NCBI GenBank assembly: GCA_963825995.1
Contig: CAWGVH010000001.1
Span: 2,903-66,902 of the forward strand
Source: an uncultured Chloroflexia bacterium
GTDB lineage: Bacteria; Chloroflexota; Limnocylindria; Limnocylindrales; CSP1-4
Direction of reading: 5' to 3'
Length of the DNA stretch: 64,000 bases
Part shown: positions 4,699 through 46,026 of the stretch, piece by piece
How the letters are laid out: every line of letters begins with the position of its first letter
Numbering within the stretch: the stretch's first letter is position 1
Position numbers and translations under genes: made by a program
The notes under the pieces: model-generated
Told to the model about the DNA's origin: nothing
What the model saw: only the letters and a program-made list of their open reading frames with translations
The model's database searches: none

Positions 4699-6504
4699 CT
4701 ACGGGCAGGCCGTCTGCGGGTCGCCGAGGACGAGATCGACGTTGGAGCCCACGGGCACCATCGCGCCGGCTTTCGGCAATTGGTCGTGCACAAGCCAGGC
4801 GTCGCCTGGCGCGGGATCGCTCGGGATGACAGCCCCAACGAGCAGCTCGGCCTCCTCGATGTGGCCGCGCGCCTCAGCCAGGGTGAGGCACAGGAAGTCA
4901 CCCACCAGCGCCGACTGCTGCGACGGGAAGGGCGAGGGCGTGACACGCGGACGGAGCGTCGGCACTTGTCGCGGCGTGGAGGCCGGCGCGGCCGTCGCGC
5001 CCAGGCCGCGGCCAGTGGAGATCACGTAGTCCACGGCCGAGCCGCGTGTCAGCGATCCGCCGGGCCCGGGGTCCGTGGTGATGACGTAGCCCTCGGGCAA
5101 TAGGTCGTCCGCGATGTAGCGCATGCCCAGCTTCAGGCCCGCAGCTTCCAGCAGGGCGATGGCCCTGTCCTCCTTGATGCCGTGCACGTCAGGCACCACG
5201 ACGGTCTCCACCTCCGTGCCGACCGTCACCTGGATCAGAGTGCCGCTCGGAACCTGGACTCCGGGGCCGGGCAGCTGATCGATGACCAGGCCCACCTCGT
5301 TGTTCGATGCAACGTAGTCGGCCTCCACGACGAGGCCGCGTCGCCGGGCGACGTTGGCTGCGTCGCTCTCCGTGCGACCAACCAGCTGTGGGGTCCTGAC
5401 CAGGGCCACACCGCCCGTGGCTGTCGGGCTGGGCGCCGCGGCGCTGTCGCCGATGCCGCTGAAGAGGATGAAGAGCAGGATGCCGGATGCCACGATGACG
5501 AGCAGCCCGAGACCCGCGGCTGCCCAGGCCAAGGGGCCAGACCTGGAATGACCATGAGCCGCCGCTGCGGGCTGTCCCACCGACCCGGGGACGGATCCCC
5601 TGGACGCGACGCTCCCAGGGATGGGGACTGGGAGGCTGGCGCCTGGCGCGGTGCCCGCGGCAGCGAACGCCGACGCCCCTGACGGATCGGCGACGAAGCG
5701 CGTCAGGGCCATCGAGAGCTCCGACGCGGAAGGCCGCGCGGCCGGATCGATGGCCAGACACCAGCGCACGATGGCGTCCAGGGCCGGTGGCGTGTCAGCT
5801 CGCACCAGCGTCGGCGACGGCACGCTGCCGCTCAGGCGCGCCACGGCCACGGCGGCCGGCGAATCACCGGAGAATGGACGCTGGCCGGTGAGAAGCTCGT
5901 ACATCACGAGCCCCAGCGAGTAGATATCGGAGGCCGGGCTGGCGGTGTCCCCACGTGCCTGTTCCGGGCTGAAGTAGAGAACGCTGCCGAGCGTGATGCC
6001 GGTCGAGGTGACGGGTGAGCGGGCGGCAACGTGGGCGATGCCGAAATCGGCCACCTGCACCCGGCCGTCCGGCGAGAGCAGGATGTTGCTGGGCTTGATG
6101 TCGCGGTGGATAAGCCCCCGAGCATGCGCCGCCGCGAGAGCGTCGGCCACCTGCTGGCCGATGCGCGCCACGGCGGTCGGGGGCAGCGCGCCGTGCTCGC
6201 CGAGCGCCACGGAGAGGTCGCCGCCGGTCACCTGCTCCATGACGATGTAGGGTCCGGCCGGGTCGGTCCCGAAGTCGTAGACCTGCACGATATTGGGATG
6301 GCTGAGGGAGGCGGCCGCCCGTGCCTCGTGTCGGAAGCGCTCGACGAACTGGGCGTCGCTGCCGTACTCCGGGCGCAGCACCTTGACGGCCACCTCGCGC
6401 CCGAGCTTGCTGTCCGTGGCGCGGAAGATGGTGGCCATGCCACCCTGGCCCAGGACCTGGTCCAGTCGGTAGCGGCCAGCCAGGACCCGGCCGAGCTCAG
6501 CCAC
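4699..6504 (-). CDS. PknB-like Ser/Thr protein kinase with C-terminal PASTA domains
   Basis: Hanks kinase motifs are present: GQGGMATIF, AVKVL, HRDIKPSNILL, DFGIA, SPEQARG. A TM segment (AAAGLGLLVIVASGILLFILF) follows, then three PASTA-like units (VRTPQLVG.., VVVPDVHG.., VGDFLCLTLAEA..). Confidence 0.92.
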   Translation of the reverse strand: MAELGRVLAGRYRLDQVLGQGGMATIFRATDSKLGREVAVKVLRPEYGSDAQFVERFRHEARAAASLSHPNIVQVYDFGTDPAGPYIVMEQVTGGDLSVALGEHGALPPTAVARIGQQVADALAAAHARGLIHRDIKPSNILLSPDGRVQVADFGIAHVAARSPVTSTGITLGSVLYFSPEQARGDTASPASDIYSLGLVMYELLTGQRPFSGDSPAAVAVARLSGSVPSPTLVRADTPPALDAIVRWCLAIDPAARPSASELSMALTRFVADPSGASAFAAAGTAPGASLPVPIPGSVASRGSVPGSVGQPAAAAHGHSRSGPLAWAAAGLGLLVIVASGILLFILFSGIGDSAAAPSPTATGGVALVRTPQLVGRTESDAANVARRRGLVVEADYVASNNEVGLVIDQLPGPGVQVPSGTLIQVTVGTEVETVVVPDVHGIKEDRAIALLEAAGLKLGMRYIADDLLPEGYVITTDPGPGGSLTRGSAVDYVISTGRGLGATAAPASTPRQVPTLRPRVTPSPFPSQQSALVGDFLCLTLAEARGHIEEAELLVGAVIPSDPAPGDAWLVHDQLPKAGAMVPVGSNVDLVLGDPQTACP

Positions 6505-7431: not shown

Positions 7432-7578
7432 CCATCCTCCATGGGCGCTGGCCGGTCCGAGCCCGGACCAGGCGGTCGGCACGGGCGTCCCCAACGGGAG
7501 TGGCCCCGAGTGTAGCGCGGGGCGTGGCGGCTCGGCCGTGCCGGTCGGCCGGGCTCCGGGGTGCCGGTGGCCCATCTC

Positions 7579-9584: not shown

Positions 9585-9603
9585 GTCGAGGGGTGGCGGC
9601 CGG

Positions 9604-9981
9604 TCAGGCCGGCTCGAACGCGTGATCCTCGCGATGGTTGCCGTCGCAGAGGCCCCAGGCCGGAGGATCGACGGGCAGCGCCACCGGCCGCATCAGCTCG
9701 CGCACGTCGGAGAGCCGGCACAGGTAGTGACCACGGCGCCCCGCCCAGGCGCGGAAATGAGCAGCATCGGCATGGAACTGGTGGGGGCCAGGGTTCAACG
9801 GCGCTTGTTCAGCCCAGCTCGGTGCCACCTCACGCGACACGTTGTCCAGGATCGTGACGCGAAAGGGCGTGCCCAAGATGGGCTCGCCGCAGCCGGCGCA
9901 GCGCTTGGCGTCGTTCTCCGAGAAGACGGTCGGGATCCGGATGCCCATGATCCGGCCGCCGCGGAAGCGGGTGGCGGTCAC
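9604..9981 (-). CDS. hypothetical protein with a CxxC motif
   Basis: 125-aa ORF with a GTG start at 9981 (alternative ATG 9948). It contains KRCAGCGEPILG. I recognise no family. Confidence 0.4.
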   Translation of the reverse strand: MTATRFRGGRIMGIRIPTVFSENDAKRCAGCGEPILGTPFRVTILDNVSREVAPSWAEQAPLNPGPHQFHADAAHFRAWAGRRGHYLCRLSDVRELMRPVALPVDPPAWGLCDGNHREDHAFEPA

Positions 9982-10206
9982 GGGCCGATCGTAGCAGAGG
10001 GGTACGTCGATCGGTGCCCGGGGAGAAGGGTAGAAGCGTGGACGCCCTCGTCGACGAGCTCGTGGATGGCTGCTTCCGTGTCATCGATCTCACCAGTGAT
10101 CAGGTCGACGAGCAGTGTGTCCGGCGGCCCCGCACGGACGCCGCACGTCATCGCGACTCATTGTCTATATTGTCGCCTACACATATAGGAAATATGGGGT
10201 AGTCGC

Positions 10207-11244
10207 TTGGATCTCGGGTACATCGTGCTCCTCCTGCTCATCGGGTTTGTTGCCCAGTTGGTCGACGGCTCGCTGGGCATGGGTTACGGCGTCACCTCGG
10301 CCACGCTGCTGGCGACCATCGGGTTCGCCCCGGCGGTGGCCTCCGCCACGATCCACGTGGCCAAGATCGGCACGGGCATCATGTCTGGGACCGCGCACTG
10401 GCGCTTCGGGAACGTCAACTGGCGAGCCGTCTTCATGCTTGCTATCCCCGGCACGGTCGGGGCGTTCGCGGGAGCCCTGGCCATCAGCTACATCGCTGCA
10501 GACGTCGCCGCGCCGTGGGTCAGCGTCATCCTGGCCGTCCTCGGCATGGTCGTGCTGCTGCGGACCGTGTTCAACCGCAAGGCGGCCATCCACTTCCATG
10601 AGCCGCGCACCCGGGTGCTCGGCCCACTTGGCCTCGTCGGAGGCTTCATCGATTCGGTCGGCGGCGGCGGCTGGGGCCCGGTCACGACCTCCACCCTGAT
10701 GGCTGCCAACCGCATGAGCCCCAACCAGGTCATCGGCACGGTCAGCATGTCCGAGTTCATCGTGGCCATCGGAGCCAGCGCGGGCTTCCTCGTGGCCCTT
10801 GGCAGCGAGTCCATCGAGTGGGGGGCCACCGCGCTGCTCCTTCTTGGCGGCCTCTTCGCGGCACCCATCGCCGCCTGGCTGGTGAGCCGCCTTGACCACC
10901 GGGTGCTGGGCGGCCTCGTGGGCGGCATGATCCTCGTCTACAACGCCGAGAACGTCCTTCGGCTGTTGGGCGTCGTGGGCCCCGCGGTCCTGGTCGCCCA
11001 GGTCGCCATCGTGGGCATCTCGCTGGCCATCTGCGCCTGGGTCGTGCGTGGCCGCCGCCAGGAGCGCGATGACACGCAGGGAGCCGCGCAGCTCACCGGG
11101 GTACCTGAGCCTCAACTCGAACAGGCACCGCTTGAACTCGAGGGGACTTCGTTGCCGAACCCAGCCGACAGAGACCCTACATCCGTGATCCCCGTGCTCA
11201 CGTCCGACGTCAGCGCCCTCGTCAGTCCGACGTCGCCGCGGTGA
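10207..11244 (+). CDS. TauE/SafE (DUF81) family anion exporter
   Basis: TTG start. MDLGYIVLLLLIGFVAQLVDGSLGMGYGVTSATLL.. and repeated G-rich TM helices are typical of DUF81. The C-terminal tail is low complexity. Confidence 0.8.
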   Translation: MDLGYIVLLLLIGFVAQLVDGSLGMGYGVTSATLLATIGFAPAVASATIHVAKIGTGIMSGTAHWRFGNVNWRAVFMLAIPGTVGAFAGALAISYIAADVAAPWVSVILAVLGMVVLLRTVFNRKAAIHFHEPRTRVLGPLGLVGGFIDSVGGGGWGPVTTSTLMAANRMSPNQVIGTVSMSEFIVAIGASAGFLVALGSESIEWGATALLLLGGLFAAPIAAWLVSRLDHRVLGGLVGGMILVYNAENVLRLLGVVGPAVLVAQVAIVGISLAICAWVVRGRRQERDDTQGAAQLTGVPEPQLEQAPLELEGTSLPNPADRDPTSVIPVLTSDVSALVSPTSPR

Positions 11245-12013
11245 AGCGTTCGGTGCGGATGCTGGTGGCAGGAGCTCCCATTCCCATCAACTGAACCTCG
11301 CAGTCAGCGATCATCGAGGGATTGCCGCAGAGATAGGCGACCATCCTGTCGCGCGTGAAGCCGTGGGCCGCGAGGAGGTCCCGCAGGTGATCTCCGACTC
11401 TCCCCGTCAGGCCGCGCCAGCCGCCCTCGTCCCGCGGTCGCGACAACACGGGCCGGTAGGTCAGCCACGTGCCGTCGAACCGGGAGAGCAGGGCGCGCCC
11501 TGCCAGCTCCTCCTCGATCCGCACTCCATGGAGGAGGACGGTCCGCGGCGGCCTGGAGCAGGCGCCGAGCTCGGCCGCCATCGAGAGGAGTGGCGCGATG
11601 CCGCTGCCGGTCGCGACCAGGAGATGGTCGCGGTCGTCGTCGGGCTCCAACCGAAACCGACCGGCTGGTGCGCCCACGAAGAGGCGAGACCCGAGCGGGA
11701 GCCCGAAGAGTCGCGGCGTGACGGCGCCCCCCTCGACGAGGGAGACCACGAGCTCGATGTCCCGTGCGCCTGACGGCGAGGCGATCGAATACGGACGCAG
11801 CGGCGTCAGGGGATGCATCGATCGGACCGGGACGTACTGGCCGGCGACGAAAGGCATGCTGCCCCGATCCGGGCGTACCGTCAACGTGGCAAGCGTCGGC
11901 GTCAGCGGGGCACGAGCCACGAGGCTCGCATTCGCGACGTGGGTCGCCCTCGGACGTGGTGCGATCGCGGTGAGGTCGGGCCTGCTGAACGCGGTGAGTG
12001 TTGGGGCGGTCAC
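11222..12013 (-). CDS. ferredoxin--NADP(+) reductase family oxidoreductase
   Basis: FAD-binding RPYSIAS and NAD(P)-binding LLVATGSGIAPL motifs, plus a YLCGNPSM tail. The start overlaps the ferredoxin stop by 4 nt. Confidence 0.8.
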   Translation of the reverse strand: MTAPTLTAFSRPDLTAIAPRPRATHVANASLVARAPLTPTLATLTVRPDRGSMPFVAGQYVPVRSMHPLTPLRPYSIASPSGARDIELVVSLVEGGAVTPRLFGLPLGSRLFVGAPAGRFRLEPDDDRDHLLVATGSGIAPLLSMAAELGACSRPPRTVLLHGVRIEEELAGRALLSRFDGTWLTYRPVLSRPRDEGGWRGLTGRVGDHLRDLLAAHGFTRDRMVAYLCGNPSMIADCEVQLMGMGAPATSIRTERFTAATSD

Positions 12014-29675: not shown

Positions 29676-30983
29676 CTAGTTGGCCGACGCGTCCTCGACG
29701 AGGATCACGTTGAACGAGCCACCGCTGAGCTGGCCAATGGCCATGGCGCTGTAGCTCTTGCCGGCCTCGAGCGTGAGGGGTTCGATGTCGAAGGCGGCCT
29801 TCTTGGCGCCGGCGGGACGGACCTCGAGGTCGTACTCACCCGCGGGAACGGTGGCGTAGCCCTTGGCCTTGCCGTACTTGAGGTTCTTGAAGATGGCGTC
29901 CTTGACAGCGCTGCCGTCAGGGGCCACGTCGACCTTGGGCGCGTCGGCGCTCAGGTGCACGACGCGGATCTGGGCCTGGTCGGCGACCGGGGCCGGCTTG
30001 TCCGCGACGATGACCGGGGTGATGTTGGCGAGCTCGTTGGTGGCCGCGACGGTCGTCAGGGTGCCGCCCTCGAAGGTGAGCGGGGCATCGATGACCACGG
30101 GGCCCTCCTCGAGCGAAGCGCCCGCGGGAACGACCTGGATCTGATAGGTGCCGGCCGGCACGAAGAGGTAGTCGGAGATGGCGCCGAAGGGGACGTCCGT
30201 GAGGATGGCCCCGCCGTTGGCGTAGACATCGACGTTCGGAGCGTCGGCCGAGAAGTGACCGACACGCACGCCCGCCAGGGCGGCATCGACGGCCGGCACG
30301 ACCGTGAAGCTGCCGTCCTCGAGGCCGCCGACGGCGAACACGGAGTAGCTCGTGCCGGCGTCGAGGGTGACCTCGGGGATGTCGAAGGCGACGGTGTCCG
30401 TACCCGCGGCGCGGATCTCCAGATCGTAGGCGCCAGCCGGCAGGTCGACGTAGCCGGTGTTGTCAGGGAAGGCCAGGCCCTCGATGAGGGCAGCCTCGCC
30501 GTCAGGGGCGATGTCGACGGCCGGGGCGTCGAAGCTGAAGTGGACGACGCGGACCTGGGTGCCATCGGCGTTGGGAGCGGGGGCGTCGGCCAGGACCTGC
30601 GGGATGATCGCGGTGGCAAGGCTGCCGGTGGCGGCCACGGTGGTCATGGTGCCGGCATCGAAGGTGAGGGGTGCGTCGATGACGACGGGGCCCTCCTCCA
30701 GCGTGGCGCCGCTCGGCACGACCTGGATCTGGTACTCGCCACCGGGGACCTCGAGATAGTCCGTGATGCTGGCGTACTCGAGGCCCTCGACGACGAGGTT
30801 GCCGCCGGCGTACACATCGACGGCCGGGGCATCGCCCGCGCCGTGGAGGACGCGAACCTTGGCCATCGCATCGGCCATCTCGTCCTGGGCGCCGACCGCG
30901 GTCGGGACGACGGCTGCGGCCGAGAGGGCAGCAGCGATACCGATGAGCGCGATCTTGCGCCCTCGGGTGGTTGGCTGAGACAT
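29676..30983 (-). CDS. secreted DUF4397 protein (internally duplicated, four DUF4397-like modules)
   Basis: ORF trimmed to ATG 30983, which has an AGGAAG RBS. It has a signal peptide. Four VR(V/G)(L/V)H..(A/F)DAP.VD(V/I) motifs mark four modules that alternate between two types. The matching segments VVPSGATLEEGPVVIDAPLTFDAG and VVPAGASLEEGPVVIDAPLTFEGG lie in the first and third modules. Confidence 0.8.
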   Translation of the reverse strand: MSQPTTRGRKIALIGIAAALSAAAVVPTAVGAQDEMADAMAKVRVLHGAGDAPAVDVYAGGNLVVEGLEYASITDYLEVPGGEYQIQVVPSGATLEEGPVVIDAPLTFDAGTMTTVAATGSLATAIIPQVLADAPAPNADGTQVRVVHFSFDAPAVDIAPDGEAALIEGLAFPDNTGYVDLPAGAYDLEIRAAGTDTVAFDIPEVTLDAGTSYSVFAVGGLEDGSFTVVPAVDAALAGVRVGHFSADAPNVDVYANGGAILTDVPFGAISDYLFVPAGTYQIQVVPAGASLEEGPVVIDAPLTFEGGTLTTVAATNELANITPVIVADKPAPVADQAQIRVVHLSADAPKVDVAPDGSAVKDAIFKNLKYGKAKGYATVPAGEYDLEVRPAGAKKAAFDIEPLTLEAGKSYSAMAIGQLSGGSFNVILVEDASAN

Positions 30984-31090
30984 CTGGGTGACTTCCTTTC
31001 GGGTTGCGACGGTCAAAGATGTGGAGCGGGCCGGCAGTGGCAAGGGGAAGCGCACTGCCGACCCGGTTGGATCAGTGAAGGTTGGCTGGG

Positions 31091-31840
31091 CTAGGCCGCA
31101 GGGGACTCCTCGGCGTCCATCGACTCTTCGGCCATCATGTCGTCGTCAGCCATGAGGCTGGCGTCGACGGCCGGCAGCACCGTGAAGGAGCCGTCAGCCA
31201 GGGAGCCGATGGCGAAGACCGTGAAGCTGTTGCCACCTGCAAGCGCCAGCGGGTCGATGTCGAAGGCGACGTCGGTCGTGCCGGTCGGGCGGATCTCGAG
31301 GTCGTACTCACCCTCGGGCAGGTCAAGGTAGCCGGCCGCGTTCGGGTAGGCGAGGTTCTCGACCACCACGTCACCACCGTCAAGGGCGATGTCGACCGCG
31401 GGGGCGTCAGCGCTGTAGTGGACGACGCGCACTTGGGCGATACCGTCCTGCGGGTTGGGTTCGTCAACAAGGACCTGAGCCTCGATGGAGGCGAGGGCGT
31501 TGGTCGCGGCGACCGTGGTCATGGTGCCAGCGGCGAACTCGAGGTCGACCGGGCCGATGACCGCGCCGTCGGCGGGATCAGCGCCTGCAGCCACGACCTC
31601 GATGGTGTACGTGCCACCGGGAACCTCGAGGTAATCAGAGAGCACGCCGAAGGGGACCTCGGTGAGGATGGCGCCACCGTTGGCGTAGACGTCGACCGCG
31701 GGCGCGTCCGGGCTGAAGTGCCCGACGCGGACCTTGGCCATGTCGGCCATGTCGTCCTGGGCGGCGACGCCGACCGGAAGGACGGAGATGGCCGCAAGGG
31801 CGGCAGCTGCACCAAGGATCGAGAGCTTCGTGGTTCGCAT
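31091..31840 (-). CDS. secreted DUF4397 protein (two modules) with acidic C-terminal tail
   Basis: ORF trimmed to ATG 31840, which has an AGGAA RBS. It has a signal peptide and is a paralog of the 29676..30983 product (AKVRVGHFSPDAPAVDVYANGGAILTEVPFG..). Confidence 0.8.
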   Translation of the reverse strand: MRTTKLSILGAAAALAAISVLPVGVAAQDDMADMAKVRVGHFSPDAPAVDVYANGGAILTEVPFGVLSDYLEVPGGTYTIEVVAAGADPADGAVIGPVDLEFAAGTMTTVAATNALASIEAQVLVDEPNPQDGIAQVRVVHYSADAPAVDIALDGGDVVVENLAYPNAAGYLDLPEGEYDLEIRPTGTTDVAFDIDPLALAGGNSFTVFAIGSLADGSFTVLPAVDASLMADDDMMAEESMDAEESPAA

Positions 31841-32047
31841 GGTTCGTTCCTTTCCATGAGTGTTGGTCACTGATGTGAGCCTGTGGCTCGAAGCGGCGAG
31901 CCTGGAGGCCCACCGGCGGGGCGGTCGAGGCGCGCTGCGCCCCTTGCGTGGGCCCCTAGCGGGACCACCTGTCGGTCATGTCGTTGTCTCCTCGCTCTGC
32001 TCTCCTGTTCAAGGTCTGTTGACCTGATGGAGCAGACGATACCCGTG

Positions 32048-32125: not shown

Positions 32126-33043
32126 ATGTACAGCATCAAGCAAGCTTCAATCCGCTCTGGCGTCAGCGTTCCGCTCATCCGGGCGTGGGAGCGCCGCTAC
32201 GGCGTGGTCAGCCCTAAGCGCACGCCATCCGGCTACCGGCTCTACGACGACGAGGCCATCGCCACCCTCGTGCGCGTGCGGGAGCTGACCGATAGCGGGT
32301 GGGGTGCCAGCGAGGCCAGTCGAGCCATCCTGGCCGGCGAGGTTGGGGTGATGCCCATCGTCCAAATGGCTCCCGTCCCCCTGGGCGACGGGTCCGCACG
32401 CACGCGTCAGGCAGACCTCAACGGGCGGTTCCTGGCAGCCGCAACGGCCATGGACATCGCCGGGACGGGCGCCGTGCTTGACGAGATCCTCGCGCAGGGA
32501 TCGTTCGAGTCCGTCGTCGACGATCTGCTCATGCCGGCCCTCGCGTCACTCGGTCTGGCCTGGACGGAGGGCCGGCTGGACGTCGCGGCGGAGCATGCCG
32601 CAAGCGCCGCTGTCCATCGCCGGCTGTCTGCACTGTACGAGGCGGCCGCGGTCATCGGTGACGTCAGCGTCGTCGTTGGCCTGCCGCCAGAGGGCCGCCA
32701 CGAGCTGGGTGCGCTCGCGTTCGCCGTGGCGCTGCGGCGCCTGGGGGTCGGCGTGCTGTACCTCGGTGCGGACGTGCCCGCCGCCAGCTGGGTGCACGTC
32801 ATCCGGCAGCATCGTGCTCGTGTCGTGGTTCTGGCTGTTGTCCAGGATTCCGACCAGCGTAGGGCGCTCGAGGTTGCAGACGCGCTGCGCGCCGCAGGCC
32901 AGAGCCTCGTCTTCGCGGTCGGTGGCCGCAGCGCCAGATGGGACGGGACGCGGGAAGCCGGTATCGTGGTGCTGCCGGACCGCATCAACGAGGCGGCCGC
33001 GGTGACGGCCAGGCTCGCAGCAGGGTCAGTCGCGGCACGGTAG
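32126..33043 (+). CDS. MerR-family transcriptional regulator with C-terminal cobalamin-binding domain (CarH/LitR-type light-responsive repressor)
   Basis: The N-terminal MerR HTH is YSIKQASIRSGVSVPLIRAWERRYGVVSPKRTPSGYRLYDDEAI. The helical-bundle motif WTEGRLDVAAEH has W-x9-EH spacing. The B12-binding Rossmann segment is VVVGLPPEGRHELGALAFAVALRRLGVGVLYLGADVP. Confidence 0.85.
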   Translation: MYSIKQASIRSGVSVPLIRAWERRYGVVSPKRTPSGYRLYDDEAIATLVRVRELTDSGWGASEASRAILAGEVGVMPIVQMAPVPLGDGSARTRQADLNGRFLAAATAMDIAGTGAVLDEILAQGSFESVVDDLLMPALASLGLAWTEGRLDVAAEHAASAAVHRRLSALYEAAAVIGDVSVVVGLPPEGRHELGALAFAVALRRLGVGVLYLGADVPAASWVHVIRQHRARVVVLAVVQDSDQRRALEVADALRAAGQSLVFAVGGRSARWDGTREAGIVVLPDRINEAAAVTARLAAGSVAAR

Positions 33044-35584: not shown

Positions 35585-37022
35585 AGAGGCCGGCGTGGGG
35601 CCCAGCCTCGAATGATGCGCTGACGCCGCTCCGGCGACAGGGTCGCCGCTGGGGCTAAGGAGCCAGCCCGAGGGCAGCCTTCACGTTCGCGAGCGTGTTC
35701 GGGTCGCTGGTCAGGAGCACCAGCGCTGGATCGGAGATGCCGGTCGAGACATCGGCGGCGATCACGGCATGGGCTCCTGGCAGGTCGGCGATGGCGGCAT
35801 TGGCCGCCTCCACGAACTGGCCCACGTCCTCGGGGCTGTCCCACTTCGTCTGCCAGACGATTGCCCACGTTCCGTCGGGGCCGTCGAGGCTGACGAGGCG
35901 GTCACCGCCCCAGCCGGCCGCGGCGTTGGCCTTGGGCAGCTCGATCGGAGCCTTCGGACCTTCCTGCGTGCCCGGCTGGCCATCGGCCAGCCAGACGGCG
36001 ATGCGGAGCTCGCCCATCGTCTCTCGCCAGGCCTCCACCCAGCCTGCTCCGAGCCGACCGGCGAGGTCGCCGAGGTCGATGGACGTGGGTCGCTCACCCG
36101 GGTAGAGCTTGGGATGCAGGATCTGCTCGGTCGATTCTGGTGGGCTGGCCCAGGCGTTATTGACGCTGGCCCAGCCACCGGCTTCCCGAAGCCGATCAAC
36201 GAAGAGGCGACCTTCAAGGAATGGGAGGTTGTACTCCCGCTGGAGGATCTGCGGCAGGGAGGCGAGGGTGCCGTCGTCGCCCGGTACGATGACATCTTCT
36301 ACCTTGGACTGGTTGCCTGGCGCGATGTTCGAGGCCGCCCAATCAAGCATGACGGCGGTGCCATCACCCTGCTCGAGGGCCAAGCCGGCGAGAGCCTGGT
36401 CGCCCATGGCTGGGTCACTCACGCGGACGCGGCTGATCCCGATCTGCTGGTCGACGGCCGTGCGGCCGAACTCACGCGCCGCGTTGGCCTCGTCGCCGAT
36501 GGTGAGCTTCTCGAGCGAGTTCAGGACTGTCAGGTTGCCACCTCCGGCCTGGTACGCGACCGAGAGCTCCTGGCCGTAGAGCCGGTCGAGCAGGGAGGCC
36601 AGATCGTCGCCTGGTCCGAGCAGGCCGAGGCGCTTGAGCGTCTTGTCTTCGCCGGCGACGGAGGCGGGGTCATGCACGATCTGCGAGCGAGGGCTGAGCA
36701 GTGCCTTCTGGTCAGCGTTGCCGACAGCGTCATATGGGACGGCTCCCAGCGGGAGCTCACGGACGGTCGGGATGGCCGCCGCCGCCGCATCCAGCTGGCC
36801 GCTTACGGTCGGGTTCTGGAGGGTGCCGCCGGCACCCAGTGGCTGGATGGGCGGGCCCAGCGAGACAACGTAGGCGACCGGGCTGTCCTTGATGACCACG
36901 GTGCCCGGCTGCGGATCCTGGGAGAGGACGACACCGTTCGGAACGGCTGGGTCATTGACCTCCGACCGCGCGCCCGGTGTGACCTCGGCAGCCGCAAGCG
37001 TGGCCTGGGCATCCGCCTCCGC

Positions 37023-38470
37023 GAGGCCCACGATGGCGGGCACGCTGACCTGCTTGGGACCCTTGCTGACGGTGAGGGTGACGGCCGAGCCGGTCTGCAC
37101 CTCGCTGCCCGCGGCGGGCTCGGTCTTGACGGCCTGGCCGGCGGGGACCGTGGCGTTGGTCTTCTGCTCGGTGGCGCCCACGACGAGGCCGGCGGCCGCG
37201 ATGGCGGCGTTGGCGTCGGCCTCAGCGAGGCCCTTGACCTCGGGCACGAGGGTGAGCGGCGGGCCGGAGCTGACGCTGTAGTTCACCGCGCTGCCCGCGG
37301 CGACCGTGCTGTCGGGTGGCGGATCCTGGGCGAGGACGGTGTTCTTGGGGCTGGCGTCCTCGACGACGGTCGAGGTGCCCACGCTGAGCTCGGCAGCCTC
37401 GATGGCGGCCTTGGCGTCGGGCTGCAGGAGGCCCACGATGGCGGGCACGCTGACCTGCTTGGGACCCTTGCTGACGGTGAGGGTGACGGCCGAGCCGGTC
37501 TGCACCTCGCTGCCCGCGGCGGGCTCGGTCTTGACGGCCTGGCCGGCGGGGACCGTGGCGTTGGTCTTCTGCTCGGTGGCGCCCACGACGAGGCCGGCGG
37601 CCGCGATGGCGGCGTTGGCGTCGGCCTCAGCGAGGCCCTTGACCTCGGGCACGAGGGTGAGCGGCGGGCCGGAGCTGACGCTGTAGTTCACCGCGCTGCC
37701 CGCGGCGACCGTGCTGTCGGGTGGCGGATCCTGGGCGAGGACGGTGTTCTTGGGGCTGGCGTCCTCGACGACGGTCGAGGTGCCCACGCTGAGCTCGGCA
37801 GCCTCGATGGCGGCCTTGGCGTCGGGCTGCAGGAGGCCCACGATGGCGGGCACGCTGACCTGCTTGGGACCCTTGCTGACGGTGAGGGTGACGGCCGAGC
37901 CGGTCTGCACCTCGCTGCCCGCGGCGGGCTCGGTCTTGACGGCCTGGCCGGCGGGGACCGTGGCGTTGGTCTTCTGCTCGGTGGCGCCCACGACGAGGCC
38001 GGCGGCCGCGATGGCGGCGTTGGCGTCGGCCTCAGCGAGGCCCTTGACCTCGGGCACGAGGGTGAGCGGCGGGCCGGAGCTGACGCTGTAGTTCACCGCG
38101 CTGCCCGCGGCGACCGTGCTGTCGGGTGGCGGATCCTGGGCGAGGACGGTGTTCTTGGGGCTGGCGTCCTCGACGACGGTCGAGGTGCCCACGCTGAGCT
38201 CGGCAGCCTCGATGGCGGCCTTGGCGTCGGGCTGCAGGAGGCCCACGATGGCGGGCACGCTGACCTGCTTGGGACCCTTGCTGACGGTGAGGGTGACGGC
38301 CGAGCCGGTCTGCACCTCGCTGCCCGCGGCGGGCTCGGTCTTGACGGCCTGGCCGGCGGGGACCGTGGCGTTGGTCTTCTGCTCGGTGGCGCCCACGACG
38401 AGGCCGGCGGCCGCGATGGCGGCGTTGGCGTCGGCCTCAGCGAGGCCCTTGACCTCGGGCACGAGGGTGA
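37023..38470. repeat. tandem repeat, 405-bp unit x about 3.6 (each unit encodes two different PASTA domains)
   Basis: Antisense ORFs at 37306, 37711 and 38116 (the first two 126 aa, the third 195 aa) share an identical N-terminal sequence of about 115 aa. The protein segment TLVPEVKGLAEADANAAI...SSGPPL repeats exactly. Confidence 0.9.
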
Positions 38471-38675
38471 CGCTTGTGCCCGCCGAGACGTACAGCGCGA
38501 CCTCCGAGCCGAGCGAGATCTCTTCATCGGCAGCCGGAACGGTCTTGATGGCGTCGCCCACAGCGACGTCTTCATTGCTCTGCTCGATGGTTTCTCCGAC
38601 GACCAGCCCGGCGTCCTCGATGGCCGCGACCGCATCAGCCTCTGAGAGGTCACGCACCGCGGGGACGGCCACGTT

Positions 38676-41600
38676 CGGCTCGACGCCCAGGCTCACGAGG
38701 TAGCTGACGGTGCTCCCCACGGCCACGCTGCTGCCGGGCTCGGGATCCTGGCTCACGACGTCACCGGCGGGCACGTCGGCGCTGTAGGCCTCGCTGGGGG
38801 CGCCGCTGAGGCGGGCGTCGGCGAGGGCCTGCTCGGCCTCGGAGGCGGGCGCGCTCGTGAGGTCGGGCACCGTGACCTGCTCGACGCCCAGGCTCACGAG
38901 GTAGCTGACGGTGCTCCCCACGGCCACGCTGCTGCCGGGCTCGGGATCCTGGCTCACGACGTCACCGGCGGGCACGTCGGCGCTGTAGGCCTCGCTGGGG
39001 GCGCCGCTGAGGCGGGCGTCGGCGAGGGCCTGCTCGGCCTCGGAGGCGGGCGCGCTCGTGAGGTCGGGCACCGTGACCTGCTCGACGCCCAGGCTCACGA
39101 GGTAGCTGACGGTGCTCCCCACGGCCACGCTGCTGCCGGGCTCGGGATCCTGGCTCACGACGTCACCGGCGGGCACGTCGGCGCTGTAGGCCTCGCTGGG
39201 GGCGCCGCTGAGGCGGGCGTCGGCGAGGGCCTGCTCGGCCTCGGAGGCGGGCGCGCTCGTGAGGTCGGGCACCGTGACCTGCTCGACGCCCAGGCTCACG
39301 AGGTAGCTGACGGTGCTCCCCACGGCCACGCTGCTGCCGGGCTCGGGATCCTGGCTCACGACGTCACCGGCGGGCACGTCGGCGCTGTAGGCCTCGCTGG
39401 GGGCGCCGCTGAGGCGGGCGTCGGCGAGGGCCTGCTCGGCCTCGGAGGCGGGCGCGCTCGTGAGGTCGGGCACCGTGACCTGCTCGACGCCCAGGCTCAC
39501 GAGGTAGCTGACGGTGCTCCCCACGGCCACGCTGCTGCCGGGCTCGGGATCCTGGCTCACGACGTCACCGGCGGGCACGTCGGCGCTGTAGGCCTCGCTG
39601 GGGGCGCCGCTGAGGCGGGCGTCGGCGAGGGCCTGCTCGGCCTCGGAGGCGGGCGCGCTCGTGAGGTCGGGCACCGTGACCTGCTCGACGCCCAGGCTCA
39701 CGAGGTAGCTGACGGTGCTCCCCACGGCCACGCTGCTGCCGGGCTCGGGATCCTGGCTCACGACGTCACCGGCGGGCACGTCGGCGCTGTAGGCCTCGCT
39801 GGGGGCGCCGCTGAGGCGGGCGTCGGCGAGGGCCTGCTCGGCCTCGGAGGCGGGCGCGCTCGTGAGGTCGGGCACCGTGACCTGCTCGACGCCCAGGCTC
39901 ACGAGGTAGCTGACGGTGCTCCCCACGGCCACGCTGCTGCCGGGCTCGGGATCCTGGCTCACGACGTCACCGGCGGGCACGTCGGCGCTGTAGGCCTCGC
40001 TGGGGGCGCCGCTGAGGCGGGCGTCGGCGAGGGCCTGCTCGGCCTCGGAGGCGGGCGCGCTCGTGAGGTCGGGCACCGTGACCTGCTCGACGCCCAGGCT
40101 CACGAGGTAGCTGACGGTGCTCCCCACGGCCACGCTGCTGCCGGGCTCGGGATCCTGGCTCACGACGTCACCGGCGGGCACGTCGGCGCTGTAGGCCTCG
40201 CTGGGGGCGCCGCTGAGGCGGGCGTCGGCGAGGGCCTGCTCGGCCTCGGAGGCGGGCGCGCTCGTGAGGTCGGGCACCGTGACCTGCTCGACGCCCAGGC
40301 TCACGAGGTAGCTGACGGTGCTCCCCACGGCCACGCTGCTGCCGGGCTCGGGATCCTGGCTCACGACGTCACCGGCGGGCACGTCGGCGCTGTAGGCCTC
40401 GCTGGGGGCGCCGCTGAGGCGGGCGTCGGCGAGGGCCTGCTCGGCCTCGGAGGCGGGCGCGCTCGTGAGGTCGGGCACCGTGACCTGCTCGACGCCCAGG
40501 CTCACGAGGTAGCTGACGGTGCTCCCCACGGCCACGCTGCTGCCGGGCTCGGGATCCTGGCTCACGACGTCACCGGCGGGCACGTCGGCGCTGTAGGCCT
40601 CGCTGGGGGCGCCGCTGAGGCGGGCGTCGGCGAGGGCCTGCTCGGCCTCGGAGGCGGGCGCGCTCGTGAGGTCGGGCACCGTGACCTGCTCGACGCCCAG
40701 GCTCACGAGGTAGCTGACGGTGCTCCCCACGGCCACGCTGCTGCCGGGCTCGGGATCCTGGCTCACGACGTCACCGGCGGGCACGTCGGCGCTGTAGGCC
40801 TCGCTGGGGGCGCCGCTGAGGCGGGCGTCGGCGAGGGCCTGCTCGGCCTCGGAGGCGGGCGCGCTCGTGAGGTCGGGCACCGTGACCTGCTCGACGCCCA
40901 GGCTCACGAGGTAGCTGACGGTGCTCCCCACGGCCACGCTGCTGCCGGGCTCGGGATCCTGGCTCACGACGTCACCGGCGGGCACGTCGGCGCTGTAGGC
41001 CTCGCTGGGGGCGCCGCTGAGGCGGGCGTCGGCGAGGGCCTGCTCGGCCTCGGAGGCGGGCGCGCTCGTGAGGTCGGGCACCGTGACCTGCTCGACGCCC
41101 AGGCTCACGAGGTAGCTGACGGTGCTCCCCACGGCCACGCTGCTGCCGGGCTCGGGATCCTGGCTCACGACGTCACCGGCGGGCACGTCGGCGCTGTAGG
41201 CCTCGCTGGGGGCGCCGCTGAGGCGGGCGTCGGCGAGGGCCTGCTCGGCCTCGGAGGCGGGCGCGCTCGTGAGGTCGGGCACCGTGACCTGCTCGACGCC
41301 CAGGCTCACGAGGTAGCTGACGGTGCTCCCCACGGCCACGCTGCTGCCGGGCTCGGGATCCTGGCTCACGACGTCACCGGCGGGCACGTCGGCGCTGTAG
41401 GCCTCGCTGGGGGCGCCGCTGAGGCGGGCGTCGGCGAGGGCCTGCTCGGCCTCGGAGGCGGGCGCGCTCGTGAGGTCGGGCACCGTGACCTGCTCGACGC
41501 CCAGGCTCACGAGGTAGCTGACGGTGCTCCCCACGGCCACGCTGCTGCCGGGCTCGGGATCCTGGCTCACGACGTCACCGGCGGGCACGTCGGCGCTGTA

Positions 41601-42493
41601 GGCCTCGCTGGGGGCGCCGCTGAGGCGGGCGTCGGCGAGGGCCTGCTCGGCCTCGGAGGCGGGCGCGCTCGTGAGGTCGGGCACCGTGACCTGCTCGACG
41701 CCCAGGCTCACGAGGTAGCTGACGGTGCTCCCCACGGCCACGCTGCTGCCGGGCTCGGGATCCTGGCTCACGACGTCACCGGCGGGCACGTCGGCGCTGT
41801 AGGCCTCGCTGGGGGCGCCGCTGAGGCGGGCGTCGGCGAGGGCCTGCTCGGCCTCGGAGGCGGGCGCGCTCGTGAGGTCGGGCACCGTGACCTGCTCGAC
41901 GCCCAGGCTCACGAGGTAGCTGACGGTGCTCCCCACGGCCACGCTGCTGCCGGGCTCGGGATCCTGGCTCACGACGTCACCGGCGGGCACGTCGGCGCTG
42001 TAGGCCTCGCTGGGGGCGCCGCTGAGGCGGGCGTCGGCGAGGGCCTGCTCGGCCTCGGAGGCGGGCGCGCTCGTGAGGTCGGGCACCGTGACCTGCTCGA
42101 CGCCCAGGCTCACGAGGTAGCTGACGGTGCTCCCCACGGCCACGCTGCTGCCGGGCTCGGATCCTGGCTCACGACGTCACCGGCGGGCACGTCGGCGCTG
42201 TAGGCCTCGCTGGGGGCGCCGCTGAGGCGGGCGTCGGCGAGGGCCTGCTCGGCCTCGGAGGCGGGCGCGCTCGTGAGGTCGGGCACCGTGACCTGCTCGA
42301 CGCCCAGGCTCACGAGGTAGCTGACGGTGCTCCCCACGGCCACGCTGCTGCCGGGCTCGGGATCCTGGCTCACGACGTCACCGGCGGGCACGTCGGCGCT
42401 GTAGGCCTCGCTGGGGGCGCCGCTGAGGCGGGCGTCGGCGAGGGCCTGCTCGGCCTCGGAGGCGGGCGCGCTCGTGAGGTCGGGCACCGTGAC
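38676..42493. repeat. tandem repeat, 201-bp unit x 19 (one 67-aa PASTA domain per unit), apparently identical copies apart from one 1-nt deletion and the last codon
   Basis: The unit starts CTCGACGCCCAGGCTCACGAGG and ends ..GGGCACCGTGACCTG. Successive unit starts at 38880, 39081 and 39282 are 201 bp apart. The protein unit is VTVPDLTSAPASEAEQALADARLSGAPSEAYSADVPAGDVVSQDPEPGSSVAVGSTVSYLVSLGVEQ. Confidence 0.92.
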
Positions 42494-42694
42494 CTGCTCG
42501 GGTGCGATGGCGACATCGACGTCCACCCTGGACCCGCCCAGCACCATCGTGCCCGCTGCCGGGTCCTGATCGAGGATGGTGTTGGGCTCCACCTCGGTGG
42601 TCTCCAGAGAGGTGGTCCCGAGAACTAGACCCAGGGAATCCGCTTCCGTCTGGGCGTCCGCCAGCATCATGCCCTCGAATGTCGGCACGGCGAC

Positions 42695-43510
42695 CAGCGC
42701 GGGGCCCGAGGAGACGACGTAGGCGACGGCCGAGAGGCGGGCCACCTCGGTGGCGGCCACGGGGTTCGAGCTGATGACGTTGCCCGCCACGATGCTGGCG
42801 TCGCTGGCTTGGGTGCGGGTGCCGGCCGCCAGGCCGGCGTCGGCGAGGGCCTTGAGAGCCTCGCTCTCGGGCAGGTCGATGATGTCGGGCACGGCGACCA
42901 GCGCGGGGCCCGAGGAGACGACGTAGGCGACGGCCGAGAGGCGGGCCACCTCGGTGGCGGCCACGGGGTTCGAGCTGATGACGTTGCCCGCCACGATGCT
43001 GGCGTCGCTGGCTTGGGTGCGGGTGCCGGCCGCCAGGCCGGCGTCGGCGAGGGCCTTGAGAGCCTCGCTCTCGGGCAGGTCGATGATGTCGGGCACGGCG
43101 ACCAGCGCGGGGCCCGAGGAGACGACGTAGGCGACGGCCGAGAGGCGGGCCACCTCGGTGGCGGCCACGGGGTTCGAGCTGATGACGTTGCCCGCCACGA
43201 TGCTGGCGTCGCTGGCTTGGGTGCGGGTGCCGGCCGCCAGGCCGGCGTCGGCGAGGGCCTTGAGAGCCTCGCTCTCGGGCAGGTCGATGATGTCGGGCAC
43301 GGCGACCAGCGCGGGGCCCGAGGAGACGACGTAGGCGACGGCCGAGAGGCGGGCCACCTCGGTGGCGGCCACGGGGTTCGAGCTGATGACGTTGCCCGCC
43401 ACGATGCTGGCGTCGCTGGCTTGGGTGCGGGTGCCGGCCGCCAGGCCGGCGTCGGCGAGGGCCTTGAGAGCCTCGCTCTCGGGCAGGTCGATGATGTCGG
43501 GCACGGCGAC
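42695..43510. repeat. tandem repeat, 204-bp unit x 4 (one 68-aa PASTA domain per unit)
   Basis: The protein unit VAVPDIIDLPESEALKALADAGLAAGTRTQASDASIVAGNVISSNPVAATEVARLSAVAYVVSSGPAL occurs four times exactly. GCAGGTCGAT recurs at 42871 and 43075. Confidence 0.9.
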
Positions 43511-44475
43511 GGTTGGCGTCGCCACAGCGACGGACAGCTCGATGGTGGACCCGACAGGCACGGCTTGGCCGGGAGGCGGTTGCTGACCCAGCACCGTGCC
43601 GGGCTCCACGTCGTCGTTCTCGACCGAGACGACCCGAACGACGAGCCCGTAATCATCGGCCGTGAGCTCGGCCTCCTCGAGGCTGAGGCCCTGGAAGTTG
43701 GGCGTGTCGACCACCGCTTCAGCCGACGGAGTCGCGCTGGGGACCTCGGTCACGACCGGCGAGGGTGACAGGGTCACGTCCGGCGAGCCGGAGTCGAAGG
43801 GGCGGAAGAGGAGGATGACGATGGCGAGCGCCACGATGAAGGCGCCCACGAGGATGCCCCCCACGAGCAGCACGGGCGTGCCCTCGTCTGGCGGCTCGCC
43901 GTCCATGCCGGGCGGTGGCAGAGGCGGGCCGTCAGGCGGTTCGATCGTCACCTCTGGCCTGGCGGCCAGCGCAGCCAGGGCGGCCTCAGTGGCTTCCGGG
44001 TCGGGGGCCACGGGCGTCGTCGTCCAGGCTGCGACGCCAGTCGCGGCGGCCATGCCGGCGCCTCCATCAGCAGCCAGGCCGGCCTCGTCCGCCAGATCGT
44101 CGGCAGGGTCCGGCCCAGCGGCCACGGCGTCCGGGTCCGCGGCCCCAGCCTCGAACTCTCCGGCGTCCTCGTCAGATCCGACGACAGCCTCCGACGGGTC
44201 CTCGTTATCTGACAGAGGGGGTCCGGCATCTGGGCCGGACGGCTGACCGGCGACTGCCTTGACCTCCGTCGGGTCAGACGCAGCTGCAAGTGGATCAGTG
44301 GAGGCAGTGGGGTCGCCGGGGTCCGGCCGCTGATCAGTCATGGCAGGCGGACCTTAGGTGACTTCGGCTCTGCGTGCGAGCACCCTGCGTGAGTCGATTG
44401 GGTCGTTCCCGGCACAAGTGTCCGAATTCTTCATCGTCCGCCGCTCCTCGCTTCACGTGCCCACAGGCCGACGGA

Positions 44476-45819
44476 TCAGGGCAAGACACCAAGGGCCGTT
44501 TCGACAGTATCGAGCGTCGCGTCGCTGTCGGCCAGCAGGACAAGTACTGGAGAGGATAGTCCTCCGCTCAGGTCGGCATTCGAGACTGCCTGGGCCCCGG
44601 ACAGATCTCGCATGGCATCGCGGGCGGCTTCCTTGAACTCCCTGGCGTCAGCCTGGCTGTCCCAGTCGGTCTGCCAGACGACGGCCCAGGTACCTTCCGG
44701 CCCATCAAGGCTCACCAAGCGGTCACCACCCCAACCGGCGGCCGCGTCAGCGCGCGGCAGGCGGGGCGGCAGGACCGGGAAGAGCGACCGCGCCTTCTGA
44801 CCATCCGCCACCCACACGCCGATCTGCATCTCGCCCAGGGTCTGCTCGTAGGAGGTCGTCCAGTCGGGGCCAAGCATTGCTTCCACATCCGGCAGTGCGA
44901 CCTCGATCGGGGTCTCGTCGGGGTAGAGCTCAGGGTGCATGATCTGCTCGGTCGAGACCGGCTGTGCCTGCCAGGCCTCATCCACGGCCGGCCAGTCGCC
45001 ACGGCCCCGGATGGCATTCACGAAGGCGAAGCCGTCGATGTAGGGGAACTCCAACTGCCGGCGCATCAGGACCGGCATCTCTCGCAGCACCTTGCTGTCC
45101 TGCCTCGTGAGCGCGCCCGCGGACACGGCCAGCAGGTCGGCCAGCTTGAGTTGGCGGGCCGCCCAGTCGTACATGATGGCGGTGGCATCGCCCTCGACCA
45201 ACGCCTGCTGAGCGAGGATGGCGTCCGACTGGTCCAGCTGCCTGATGCGGCGGGCCTCCAGGTCGTATGCCGCGTCCTGGAGGGCGTGCTCATACTCGTG
45301 GGCGACGACGACCAATTCGAGCGCCCCGATCTTGCGAGCCGGGCCGATGAGCGAGAACGTATCCGACCTCGGGTCGTAGTACGCCAGCACCTGGGCGTCG
45401 TACAGCGAGAGGGTCAGCTCACCCAGGTCGTCGTCCGGATCGATCAGCCCGAGGCGTGTGAGGGCAGCATCCTCGGCCGCGACGTCGGCGTCCGTGTATT
45501 CCTCGCGGAAGAGAGCTTCCAGTTCAGCCGTGAAGGTGCCGGCGTCGATGACGCGGTACTTGACGCCGTCGGCCGGCGGGAGGCCGCGGATGGGAGGCAC
45601 GGAGTCGATGACCGCGTTCACCCGCCTGACCATCCTGGCGTTGAAGCCATCCGGCAGCGACGCGGCCTCGCCCGAGGAGGCCGGCGTGGACGCATCCTGT
45701 GCTGAGGCGAGGCCTGACGGGGCGAGCGCAAGCAGGGCGAGGGACAGGGCCAGTGCGGCGGGGCGGGCGAGCCACGACCGGCGCAGCGCCGACGCGGAGC
45801 GACTGACGATGGCTGTCAT
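44476..45819 (-). CDS. secreted HExxH (zinc metallopeptidase-like) protein, paralog of the C-terminal domain of the giant PASTA protein
   Basis: Signal peptide MTAIVSRSASALRRSWLARPAALALSLALLALAPSGLASA (start ATG 45819 or 45828). The HExxH motif is intact (VVAHEYEHALQD). The C-terminus AAGWGGDRLVSLDGPEGTWAVVWQTDWDS matches the giant protein's AAGWGGDRLVSLDGPDGTWAIVWQTKWDS. Confidence 0.8.
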   Translation of the reverse strand: MTAIVSRSASALRRSWLARPAALALSLALLALAPSGLASAQDASTPASSGEAASLPDGFNARMVRRVNAVIDSVPPIRGLPPADGVKYRVIDAGTFTAELEALFREEYTDADVAAEDAALTRLGLIDPDDDLGELTLSLYDAQVLAYYDPRSDTFSLIGPARKIGALELVVVAHEYEHALQDAAYDLEARRIRQLDQSDAILAQQALVEGDATAIMYDWAARQLKLADLLAVSAGALTRQDSKVLREMPVLMRRQLEFPYIDGFAFVNAIRGRGDWPAVDEAWQAQPVSTEQIMHPELYPDETPIEVALPDVEAMLGPDWTTSYEQTLGEMQIGVWVADGQKARSLFPVLPPRLPRADAAAGWGGDRLVSLDGPEGTWAVVWQTDWDSQADAREFKEAARDAMRDLSGAQAVSNADLSGGLSSPVLVLLADSDATLDTVETALGVLP

Positions 45820-46026
45820 GTCGCGCATTCTGACAGCGTTGGCGCGAGGCTCCTTGGGGACCGCCCCCGGCACCCCCAGGGGGTCTGTGCGAGGTCACCC
45901 GTGTGGGCGCCGACAGCCGGTGTGCGTTTCTTCATCGTTCGAGGGCTGGCGCCTTCATCGTCGAGGGCTACTCTTTCGCTCACGGAACCGCGAAGCATCC
46001 CTTCACAGTTCCCTCTCCCTCCCTCT

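Follow-up and report, generated by a model that had tools for sequence, protein, structure and literature searches.

A window of 64,000 nucleotides from an uncultured Chloroflexia bacterium (GenBank assembly GCA_963825995.1, contig CAWGVH010000001.1, positions 2,903 to 66,902) carries on its minus strand a giant gene, the source organism being a soil Chloroflexota bacterium of the Limnocylindria. The frame-corrected gene encodes a membrane protein of 2895 amino acids (aa) with 34 PASTA units and a C-terminal domain of the DUF8575 family, hereafter the head. The explanation that we favor, with a probability of roughly 55%, is that an N-in membrane anchor and a long PASTA spacer carry a non-catalytic DUF8575 head which has kept a binding function and works together with a secreted enzyme. 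The very long and strongly acidic PASTA chain of the ectodomain would serve as a stalk that holds the head at its far end, away from the membrane. The dead head would still bind either the free enzyme or the substrate of the enzyme, and the stalk would keep this activity attached to the cell, some way off the membrane. The amplified PASTA units would be interchangeable, and unequal recombination would keep them identical within a genome while varying their number.

The head domain and its upstream paralogue

The whole protein was accounted for by an N-terminal tail, one transmembrane (TM) helix, a linker, the PASTA region, and the DUF8575 head (Table 1). The head measured 395 aa, and not the approximately 470 aa given in an earlier note made from the DNA sequence alone. 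It matched no Pfam family in the Pfam copy used, which lacked PF26686, and its identity was taken from NCBIfam and from precomputed labels on its homologues. Residues 63-348 matched the NCBIfam model NF038145 ("Hvo_1808 family surface protein") with 87 bits and an E-value of 1.6e-24; as the equivalog cutoff of 200 is not reached, this indicates membership at the domain level only. There were 238 homologues, and all of those listed carried the label PF26686 (DUF8575).

An alignment of 120 homologues was used for motif comparison. At the zinc-ligand positions, the head reads REFGR...QGDGTA. The PASTA-fused clade (P0001-P0050) carried RExxR...Q wherever the motif was covered, with few variants (among them ARAFDG in P0007 and AREFGQ in P0013). 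The stand-alone or merely anchored members (P0051-P0120) carried HExxH...EGDA in every sequence covering these columns. The zinc peptidase family Zn_peptidase_2 (PF04298) was matched below threshold by 21 of 99 family members, all of them live, i.e. with the motif intact (best E-value 1.1e-4, 22 versus 27 bits), and DUF6782 ("putative metallopeptidase") was matched by five live members. These motifs and profile matches suggest that DUF8575 is a putative zinc peptidase fold of the HExxH...E type. The head would then be a conserved pseudo-version of this fold that has stayed under selection although both histidine ligands and the glutamate ligand have been lost. Without these ligands, it cannot be the kind of zinc peptidase that is typical of the family. 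The peptidase-like tip described in the earlier note was thus right as homology, with HExxH...E invariant in the relatives and weak Zn_peptidase_2 matches, but not as a peptidase module, the ligands being replaced in the head and the live paralogue upstream having been missed.

An AlphaFold2 (AF2) model of the head was highly confident, with a predicted local distance difference test (pLDDT) of 97.4 and a predicted template modeling score (pTM) of 0.94. The two motifs, starting at residues 122 and 157, lie in the model on consecutive helices (H115-133 and H147-172). A TiME/PknH-sensor-like match of the C-terminal subdomain of the head (probability 0.8-0.9, TM-score 0.2) was too faint and was not relied on.

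The gene for a secreted DUF8575 paralogue, predicted to be an active zinc peptidase, lies directly upstream of the giant gene on the same strand after a gap of 134 bp. Its product is 39% identical to the head (E-value 1e-88) and has a signal peptide-like N terminus, its true start probably being an internal ATG near 45819-45828. Both genes probably belong to the same operon. A live paralogue is found directly upstream of the giant gene in six orthologous loci (L001, L004, L007, L008, L009, and L012), and in a seventh, L083, the paralogue is present as frameshift-broken fragments.

In such a pairing the head resembles the degenerate LytM proteins EnvC and NlpD with their amidases, which likewise have a catalytic fold without metal ligands that is under selection and are encoded beside an active hydrolase. 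The fold and the family differ, the present case is known from sequence, and the predicted active partner is a paralogue. Among members of the DUF8575/NF038145 family, to which the head is homologous, are cell surface-associated proteins that are secreted, lipid-anchored, or TM-anchored, and Hvo_1808 is a cell-associated haloarchaeal lipoprotein (PMC2945643). The head departs from this family by its score under the equivalog cutoff, the replacement of HExxH...E, and the fusion to a PASTA stalk. The locus provides a testable hypothesis for the DUF8575/Hvo_1808 family.

At the other end of the protein, Pfam and NCBIfam scans found no kinase or transpeptidase domain, bearing out the earlier note on the lack of a kinase or PBP catalytic domain. 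The N-terminal 277 aa matched nothing in Pfam but PASTA, no transpeptidase match occurred in the non-PASTA parts, and NF033483, which describes PASTA kinases of the PknB/Stk1 type, scored 26 bits against a cutoff of 450 by way of the PASTA part only. A single TM helix was present, as the earlier note had it; the tail in front of it comprises 156 aa instead of about 165 aa, the helix occupying aa 157-179. We infer a type II (N-in) single-pass topology. The tail differs in length and sequence among the four orthologues compared, except for the motif AAWTTTPVAPDPEATEAALAALAARPEVT, which is nearly invariant, as is the TM helix. This conservation hints at cytoplasmic and membrane partners; the motif (TTTP) may bind a partner or be phosphorylated, although any connection with Ser/Thr phosphorylation is speculation only. 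The giant protein contains no cysteine at all.

Table 1. Features of the giant gene and of the gene upstream of it, in the direction of transcription (positions in the window; dN/dS, ratio of nonsynonymous to synonymous substitution rates, against orthologues)
Feature	Position	Strand	Evidence or remark
Secreted DUF8575 paralogue, predicted active zinc peptidase	44476..45873	(-)	HEYEH...EGDATA intact
N-terminal cytoplasmic tail (predicted), aa 1-156	43874..44341	(-)	Acidic (net -31), Pro/Ala-rich; composition
Tail motif AAWTTTPVAPDPEATEAALAALAARPEVTIEPP, aa 104-136	43934-44032	(-)	Nearly invariant in four orthologues
Single TM helix, aa 157-179 (VLLVGGILVGAFIVALAIVILLF)	43805..43873	(-)	Nearly invariant across orthologues
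Pro/Ser-rich juxtamembrane linker, aa 180-210 (31 aa)	43712..43804	(-)	
PASTA unit N1, unique, membrane-proximal	43511..43711	(-)	PASTA 54.6 bits; dN/dS 0.11-0.22
Array A, 4 identical 204-bp units	42695..43510	(-)	Tandem Repeats Finder period 204, 4.1 copies; PASTA 35.3 bits
PASTA unit X1, unique	42494..42694	(-)	PASTA 42.3 bits
Array B, 19 201-bp units	38673..42493	(-)	Tandem Repeats Finder period 201, 19.0 copies, 99% matches; PASTA 55.1 bits
PASTA unit X2, unique	38466..38672	(-)	PASTA 45.2 bits
Array C, 405-bp (C1 C2) x3 + C1 = 7 units	37050..38465	(-)	PASTA 55.8, 42.5 bits
PASTA unit X3, unique, adjoins head	36843..37049	(-)	PASTA 41.3 bits; dN/dS 0.13-0.41
C-terminal head, aa 2501-2895 (395 aa) + stop	35655..36842	(-)	PF26686 labels on homologues, NF038145

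PASTA arrays and reading frame

Exact string matching gave exactly 34 PASTA units of 66-69 aa each between aa 211 and 2500, the number that had been counted in the earlier note, in the order N1, four copies of A, X1, 19 copies of B, X2, three C1 C2 pairs plus one C1, and X3. Only eight distinct sequences occur among the 34 units, with a mutual identity of 22-52%. The earlier note had proposed a scan with the Pfam PASTA model PF03793 to confirm the domain count. All eight unit types scored above its gathering cutoff of 23.2 bits (35.3-55.8 bits), which validates the units as PASTA.

The fold and the probable shape of the stalk were examined with an AF2 model of four units (pLDDT 91, pTM 0.49). 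The low pTM is as would be expected for beads on a string. The best Foldseek matches of this model were the extended ectodomains of Staphylococcus aureus PrkC (3py9) and Mycobacterium tuberculosis PknB (2kui). The alignment with 3py9 spanned 206 columns and three domains with a root mean square deviation (rmsd) of 4.8 Å and an E-value of 3e-14; 3py9, 2kui, 3m9g, and 5e12 were all matched with E-values of 1e-12 to 1e-14. The model thus showed the alpha plus three-stranded beta fold of solved PASTA domains. The structure 3ouv superposed with an rmsd of 1.0 Å over 67 residues, whereas the compact PASTA pair of PBP2x could be aligned only at an rmsd of about 16 Å. Kinase PASTA ectodomains are linear in published structures (PMC3601408, PMC7654742). 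Linkers between the units of the giant protein have 0-3 residues, and the net charge of the PASTA region, -244 over 2290 aa (36843-43711, minus strand), should favor extension. Linear stringing of the domains, as imagined in the earlier note, is therefore plausible in view of the best matches of the four-unit model, and the chain is probably extended. If it is as linear as the kinase ectodomains, the stalk would be about 100 nm long, an estimate extrapolated from about 3-3.5 nm per domain and not computed.

The repeat arrays were defined by Tandem Repeats Finder and direct DNA comparison. In the former, array C had a period of 405, 3.6 copies, and 100% matches. The DNA copies were 100% identical within each array save for a frameshift, described below, and the boundary base of the last B copy; in array B, 18 of the 19 copies were identical after correction of the frameshift, and the last was off at this one base. 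As copies identical in DNA cannot be told apart, the exact copy number depends on long-read assembly. The GC content was 0.745-0.76 in the arrays and about 0.69 in the flanks. Between genomes, array A had a DNA identity of only 70-88%, whereas its copies within one genome were identical. Since the copies are identical within a genome and diverged between genomes, the arrays bear the signature of concerted evolution through unequal recombination, and they predate the species splits. Concerted evolution of coding repeats is seen here in a clean case, one resolvable only by long-read metagenomes.

The dN/dS ratios of the two end units N1 and X3 are listed in Table 1. Those of the amplified units were 0.52-0.79 for A and about 0.3-0.6 for C1 and C2 (close pairs), array B against the window having been left out because of indel misalignment. 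Although derived from short sequences, these ratios are suggestive of amplified units that are interchangeable spacers and of end units that make specific contacts.

PASTA domains have been studied almost only as sensor modules that occur in one to four copies in kinases and PBPs. The giant protein resembles the PASTA kinases (M. tuberculosis PknB, S. aureus PrkC/Stk1, and Streptococcus pneumoniae StkP) in its probable N-in orientation with PASTA outside, in the PASTA fold itself, in the short linkers, and in the linear arrangement. It differs from them by an acidic tail of 156 aa in place of the kinase, by 34 units compared with 3-4, by the mostly identical tandem copies, and by a distal element that is a predicted pseudo-peptidase and not PASTA. 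In StkP, the proximal PASTA units function like a ruler setting the position of the distal unit, which binds the hydrolase LytB (PMC3601408, PMC7654742).

Given the StkP precedent for a ruler, the binding of muropeptides by some PASTA domains of PknB and PrkC (PMC3145798, PMC3601408), and a kinase with three PASTA units in the window, the 34 units might themselves bind muropeptide or lipid II, so that the protein would be a multivalent wall tether, a gauge of wall thickness, or a sink competing with the PASTA kinase at 4699..6504. We consider this unlikely. Peptidoglycan binding is lacking in many PASTA domains, and as a rule just one per array has it (PMC7654742). The relaxed constraint on the amplified units (dN/dS 0.5-0.8) and a unit number that ranges from about 24 to 47 among orthologous loci fit spacers better than ligand sites. 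The stalk would exceed any plausible wall thickness by far, the kinase gene is 30 kb off and unlinked, and unrelated proteins carry PASTA arrays beside adhesin modules (LamG, Big, cadherin, PKD, and dockerin). The muropeptide sink and the surface layer (S-layer) anchor suggested in the earlier note found no support. According to a published rule, Arg or Glu at the end of strand beta'1 marks a muropeptide binder and Pro a non-binder (PMC7654742). The only prolines invariant across the units are P4 and P45, and the position decisive for this rule was not confidently mapped on the units.

The kinase encoded at 4699-6504 (minus strand) is of the PknB type (Pkinase 172 bits, PASTA 103 bits for its three units). 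Its gene has an NTP-transferase gene and an EamA transporter gene as neighbors and not the fhaA-pstP-rodA-pbpA set.

In the window as given, the giant gene is divided into two minus-strand open reading frames (ORFs), 42110..44341 and 35655..42143, whose ends overlap inside a perfect repeat. Addition of one C on the minus strand, equal to a G on the plus strand, to the CC run at 42159-42160 yielded the ORF of 2895 aa with zero internal stops, confirming that one restored G joins the two parts as proposed in the earlier note. The lesion is in the second copy of array B. Its junction reads GGATCC^GAGCCC and that of the 18 sister copies GGATCCCGAGCC; CC versus CCC is the sole difference between them. 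It is a single lesion across 8.7 kb, all repeats being otherwise intact and identical. Recurrent homopolymer frameshifts were seen in the sister assemblies L012 and L009; in L012 (4360-6960), successive copies of an identical repeat carry them at one and the same position. The pattern in the window and L012 suggests a systematic long-read or methylation-context basecalling error and not biology. Because the noisier assemblies share recurrent frameshifts and the lesion lies in a short C run of GGATCC, the frameshift of the window is most likely a consensus error. The context GGATCC(C)GAG includes GATC.

Were the frameshift at 42159-42160 genuine, the gene would be a recently inactivated relic, as the window sequence taken at face value would have it. 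This is very unlikely in light of the one lesion in 8.7 kb of otherwise intact and identical repeats, the loss of one base from a CCC run in a GGATCC site, a lesion of the kind that long-read consensus errors typically produce, and the recurrent frameshifts in L012 and L009. Moreover, the gene is intact in L007 and L008, where uninterrupted ORFs encode 3222 and 2617 aa, respectively. Programmed phase variation at this site was rejected, since a C run of three bases would be too short for slipped-strand switching. An ORF of 958 aa runs antisense to the PASTA arrays (35769-38645, plus strand); it was rejected as a gene and regarded as a by-product of the high-GC repeated coding sequence. A scan for promoters and terminators over 35.3-46.2 kb yielded nothing informative.

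Orthologous loci and history of the gene pair

Related loci were found via homologues of the C-terminal domain; their annotations read uncultured Chloroflexia, Candidatus Limnocylindrales, or Limnocylindria. Their architectures were determined with a hidden Markov model built from the eight window units, each unit being named after its best match among the window types. Seven syntenic long-read metagenome loci (Table 2) share one skeleton, in which N1...X2 (C1C2)n C1 X3 precedes DUF8575. They also share the gene order FTCD, a metallo-beta-lactamase (MBL)-fold gene, the DUF8575 gene, the giant PASTA gene, and, in convergent orientation, argS. Large arrays are thus characteristic of the gene family and not peculiar to a single assembly. 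The gene is genuine and conserved in soil Limnocylindria; the exact number of units in the window rests on its own reads.

Table 2. Order and number of PASTA units in the window and in orthologous loci
Locus	Units	Total
Window	N1 A4 X1 B19 X2 (C1C2)3 C1 X3	34
L009 (same contig as L002)	N1 A3 X1 B16 X2 (C1C2)5 C1 X3	34
L008	N1 A4 X1 B17 X2 (C1C2)2 C1 X3	30
L004	A6, B12, diverged C pairs	34
L012	A6-7, ~16-19 B-type	36
L007	~22-23 A copies, few B-type	38
L083	One array of ~29-30 copies	~47
L001	Noisy assembly	~24

It is hardly credible that the copy numbers are inflated by assembly and that only a few PASTA units are real, as the earlier note had allowed. Perfect repeats of 201, 204, and 405 bp over up to 3.8 kb are indeed hard to assemble, a short-read locus, L084, has only 11-12 units, and the short-read contig L003 ends inside the arrays. 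Yet the seven long-read contigs are independent, come from different samples and species, and have their unit types in the same order, with totals of about 24-47 units. Furthermore, the eight unique unit types alone exceed the number of units in any characterised PASTA protein. We dropped the idea that selection holds the total near 34. The first six genomes had 30-38 units with different arrays expanded, and a fixed total of about 34 was weakened by L083 (~47), L001 (~24, noisy), and L084 (11-12, short-read).

Two further groups of relatives bear on the origin of the pair. At the syntenic position in L085, a more distant relative (5492-11833; ERZ25039539 contig_10888), P0142 and P0098 are one gene split by a frameshift. 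It combines a TM helix, PASTA units with Pro/Thr linkers between them, and a live HEYDH head, and a separate paralogue is absent. This looks like the ancestral state. P0101, P0102, P0105, and P0106 have the same tail-TM anchor joined to a live DUF8575 domain by a disordered Pro/Thr/Ser linker instead of PASTA. The swapping of the PASTA stalk for such a linker among relatives argues for a spacer role of the stalk. In the simplest history, the tether of a membrane-tethered DUF8575 enzyme would have been replaced by PASTA units, and a duplication in the lineage of the window would then have produced two genes, one for a live enzyme that is free and one for a dead head borne on the stalk. The loci offer a natural series for relating PASTA length to function, with live heads, dead heads plus free enzyme, and about 24-47 repeats.

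Several observations speak against the favored explanation of a dead, binding head on a PASTA spacer that works with the free enzyme. At the syntenic position in L084, likewise a more distant relative (6001-10416; GCA_034436555.1, a short-read metagenome-assembled genome (MAG) in which repeats may be collapsed), P0188 has 1471 aa, 11-12 PASTA units, and an independently degenerate head with GQADT and GGDQAV at the ligand positions, but there is no adjacent live paralogue; docking of the paralogue can therefore not be the universal role. Residues E239 and H243 (STEQxxHP), D148, and D314 (GWGGDR) are invariant in both clades and could form a real functional site, so that the head might not be dead. 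The peptidase label comes only from the motif and from profile matches below threshold. Single-sequence and profile searches of the PDB found no solved relative, and Foldseek returned no PDB match at E < 0.1 and hence no solved zincin relative in spite of the highly confident model. The TM helix is flanked by little positive charge, and the sole ground for the topology is PASTA precedent. Unit totals of about 24-47 imply no fixed stalk length. Finally, the window copy as given is frameshifted.

A bolder proposal, taken as one joint claim, is that PASTA arrays are a general measuring rod tunable by recombination and that in this lineage the pair, held out by a set length of about 100 nm, builds, trims, or senses an outer layer (a sheath, S-layer, or matrix), while the TTTP motif and the TM helix couple it to the interior, e.g. 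as a substrate or an FHA-type partner of a PASTA kinase. We regard this as doubtful. If it were true, array length would be a heritable trait under selection that helps determine how the envelope of Limnocylindria is built.

Other PASTA-rich proteins and neighboring genes

A profile of the eight units was searched against 1.84 billion cluster representatives, and 45,546 PASTA proteins were found. At the top of the list, 20-34 units were matched per called protein, and dozens of cluster representatives had 10-34 PASTA units. Among the best 150 of the 45,546, the highest counts were those of P0164 (34), P0122 (32), and P0121 (31; a fragment of the L083 orthologue), a kinase domain was present in six, and DUF8575 was present in two. 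About 140 of these 150 are thus kinase-less, and modules of the adhesin type are found on many. The giant protein is thus among the most PASTA-rich in this library of 1.84 billion proteins. Its copy number is extreme, yet it is a member of a broad class of kinase-less PASTA-array proteins, and the uniqueness implied in the earlier note was overstated. The architecture is common in databases, although the literature searched described neither kinase-less high-copy PASTA proteins nor a DUF8575 function. Use of PASTA as the building block of a surface stalk of about 2,300 residues, as proposed here, is likewise not described in the literature searched. The results point to kinase-less PASTA arrays as a large, unstudied class of surface proteins of uncultured bacteria.

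In four unrelated proteins, Pfam confirmed 23-30 PASTA units together with LamG, Big, cadherin-like, PKD, or dockerin modules. The giant protein itself recalls repeat-extender surface proteins (Marinomonas MpIBP and RTX adhesins, S. aureus SasG, Staphylococcus epidermidis Aap, and streptococcal Rib/alpha-C), in which a rod projects a terminal functional domain and DNA-identical tandem repeats differ in copy number between strains. Like them, the giant gene has tandem repeats that are near-identical in DNA, with a copy number that varies between relatives. It differs in that the units are PASTA and not Ig-like, G5-E, or Rib domains, in that the anchor is an N-terminal TM helix and not an LPXTG motif or a type I secretion system (T1SS), and in that the host is an uncultured soil Chloroflexota bacterium.

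The protein may thus also be a free-standing giant adhesin, whose head would bind a polymer, a mineral, or another cell independently of the neighboring peptidase. This is a possibility to be taken into account, though clearly the less probable one. It would fit the identical DNA repeats of variable number with a distal non-repeat domain, long known from MpIBP, SasG/Aap, and Rib-type proteins, the adhesin modules on other PASTA-rich proteins, the degenerate head of L084 without an adjacent paralogue, and the extreme acidity of the PASTA region. It does not explain why the pair of live and dead genes is kept in every close orthologue. In addition, the other members of the enzyme family from which the head derives are stand-alone secreted, lipid-anchored, or TM-anchored proteins, and the giant protein carries no LPXTG, T1SS, or other adhesin export signature.

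Two further groups of PASTA-rich proteins emerged from the same search. P0185, P0242, P0248, P0263, P0264, and P0269 are Hanks-type kinases with 11-14 PASTA units, to our knowledge several times as many as any characterised PASTA kinase has. P0124, P0126, P0130, P0138, P0139, P0146, and P0148 are giants of a separate family with PASTA arrays 15-30 units in length. A module with 'LVELQNNDGGWD', measuring about 310 aa, is interleaved with these arrays or follows them, and it is weakly GH88-like in P0124. Most members of this family in which the C terminus is present end in a dockerin-like tail.

Additional genes close to the giant gene were also noted. A regulator with a MerR-type helix-turn-helix (HTH) domain and a B12-binding domain, CarH/LitR-like and possibly light-responsive, is encoded at 32126-33043 (plus strand), and two DUF4397 genes are located at 29676-31055 and 31091-31870 (both minus strand). 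The synteny of the MerR/B12 regulator gene and the DUF4397 genes with the giant gene is kept across orthologous loci.

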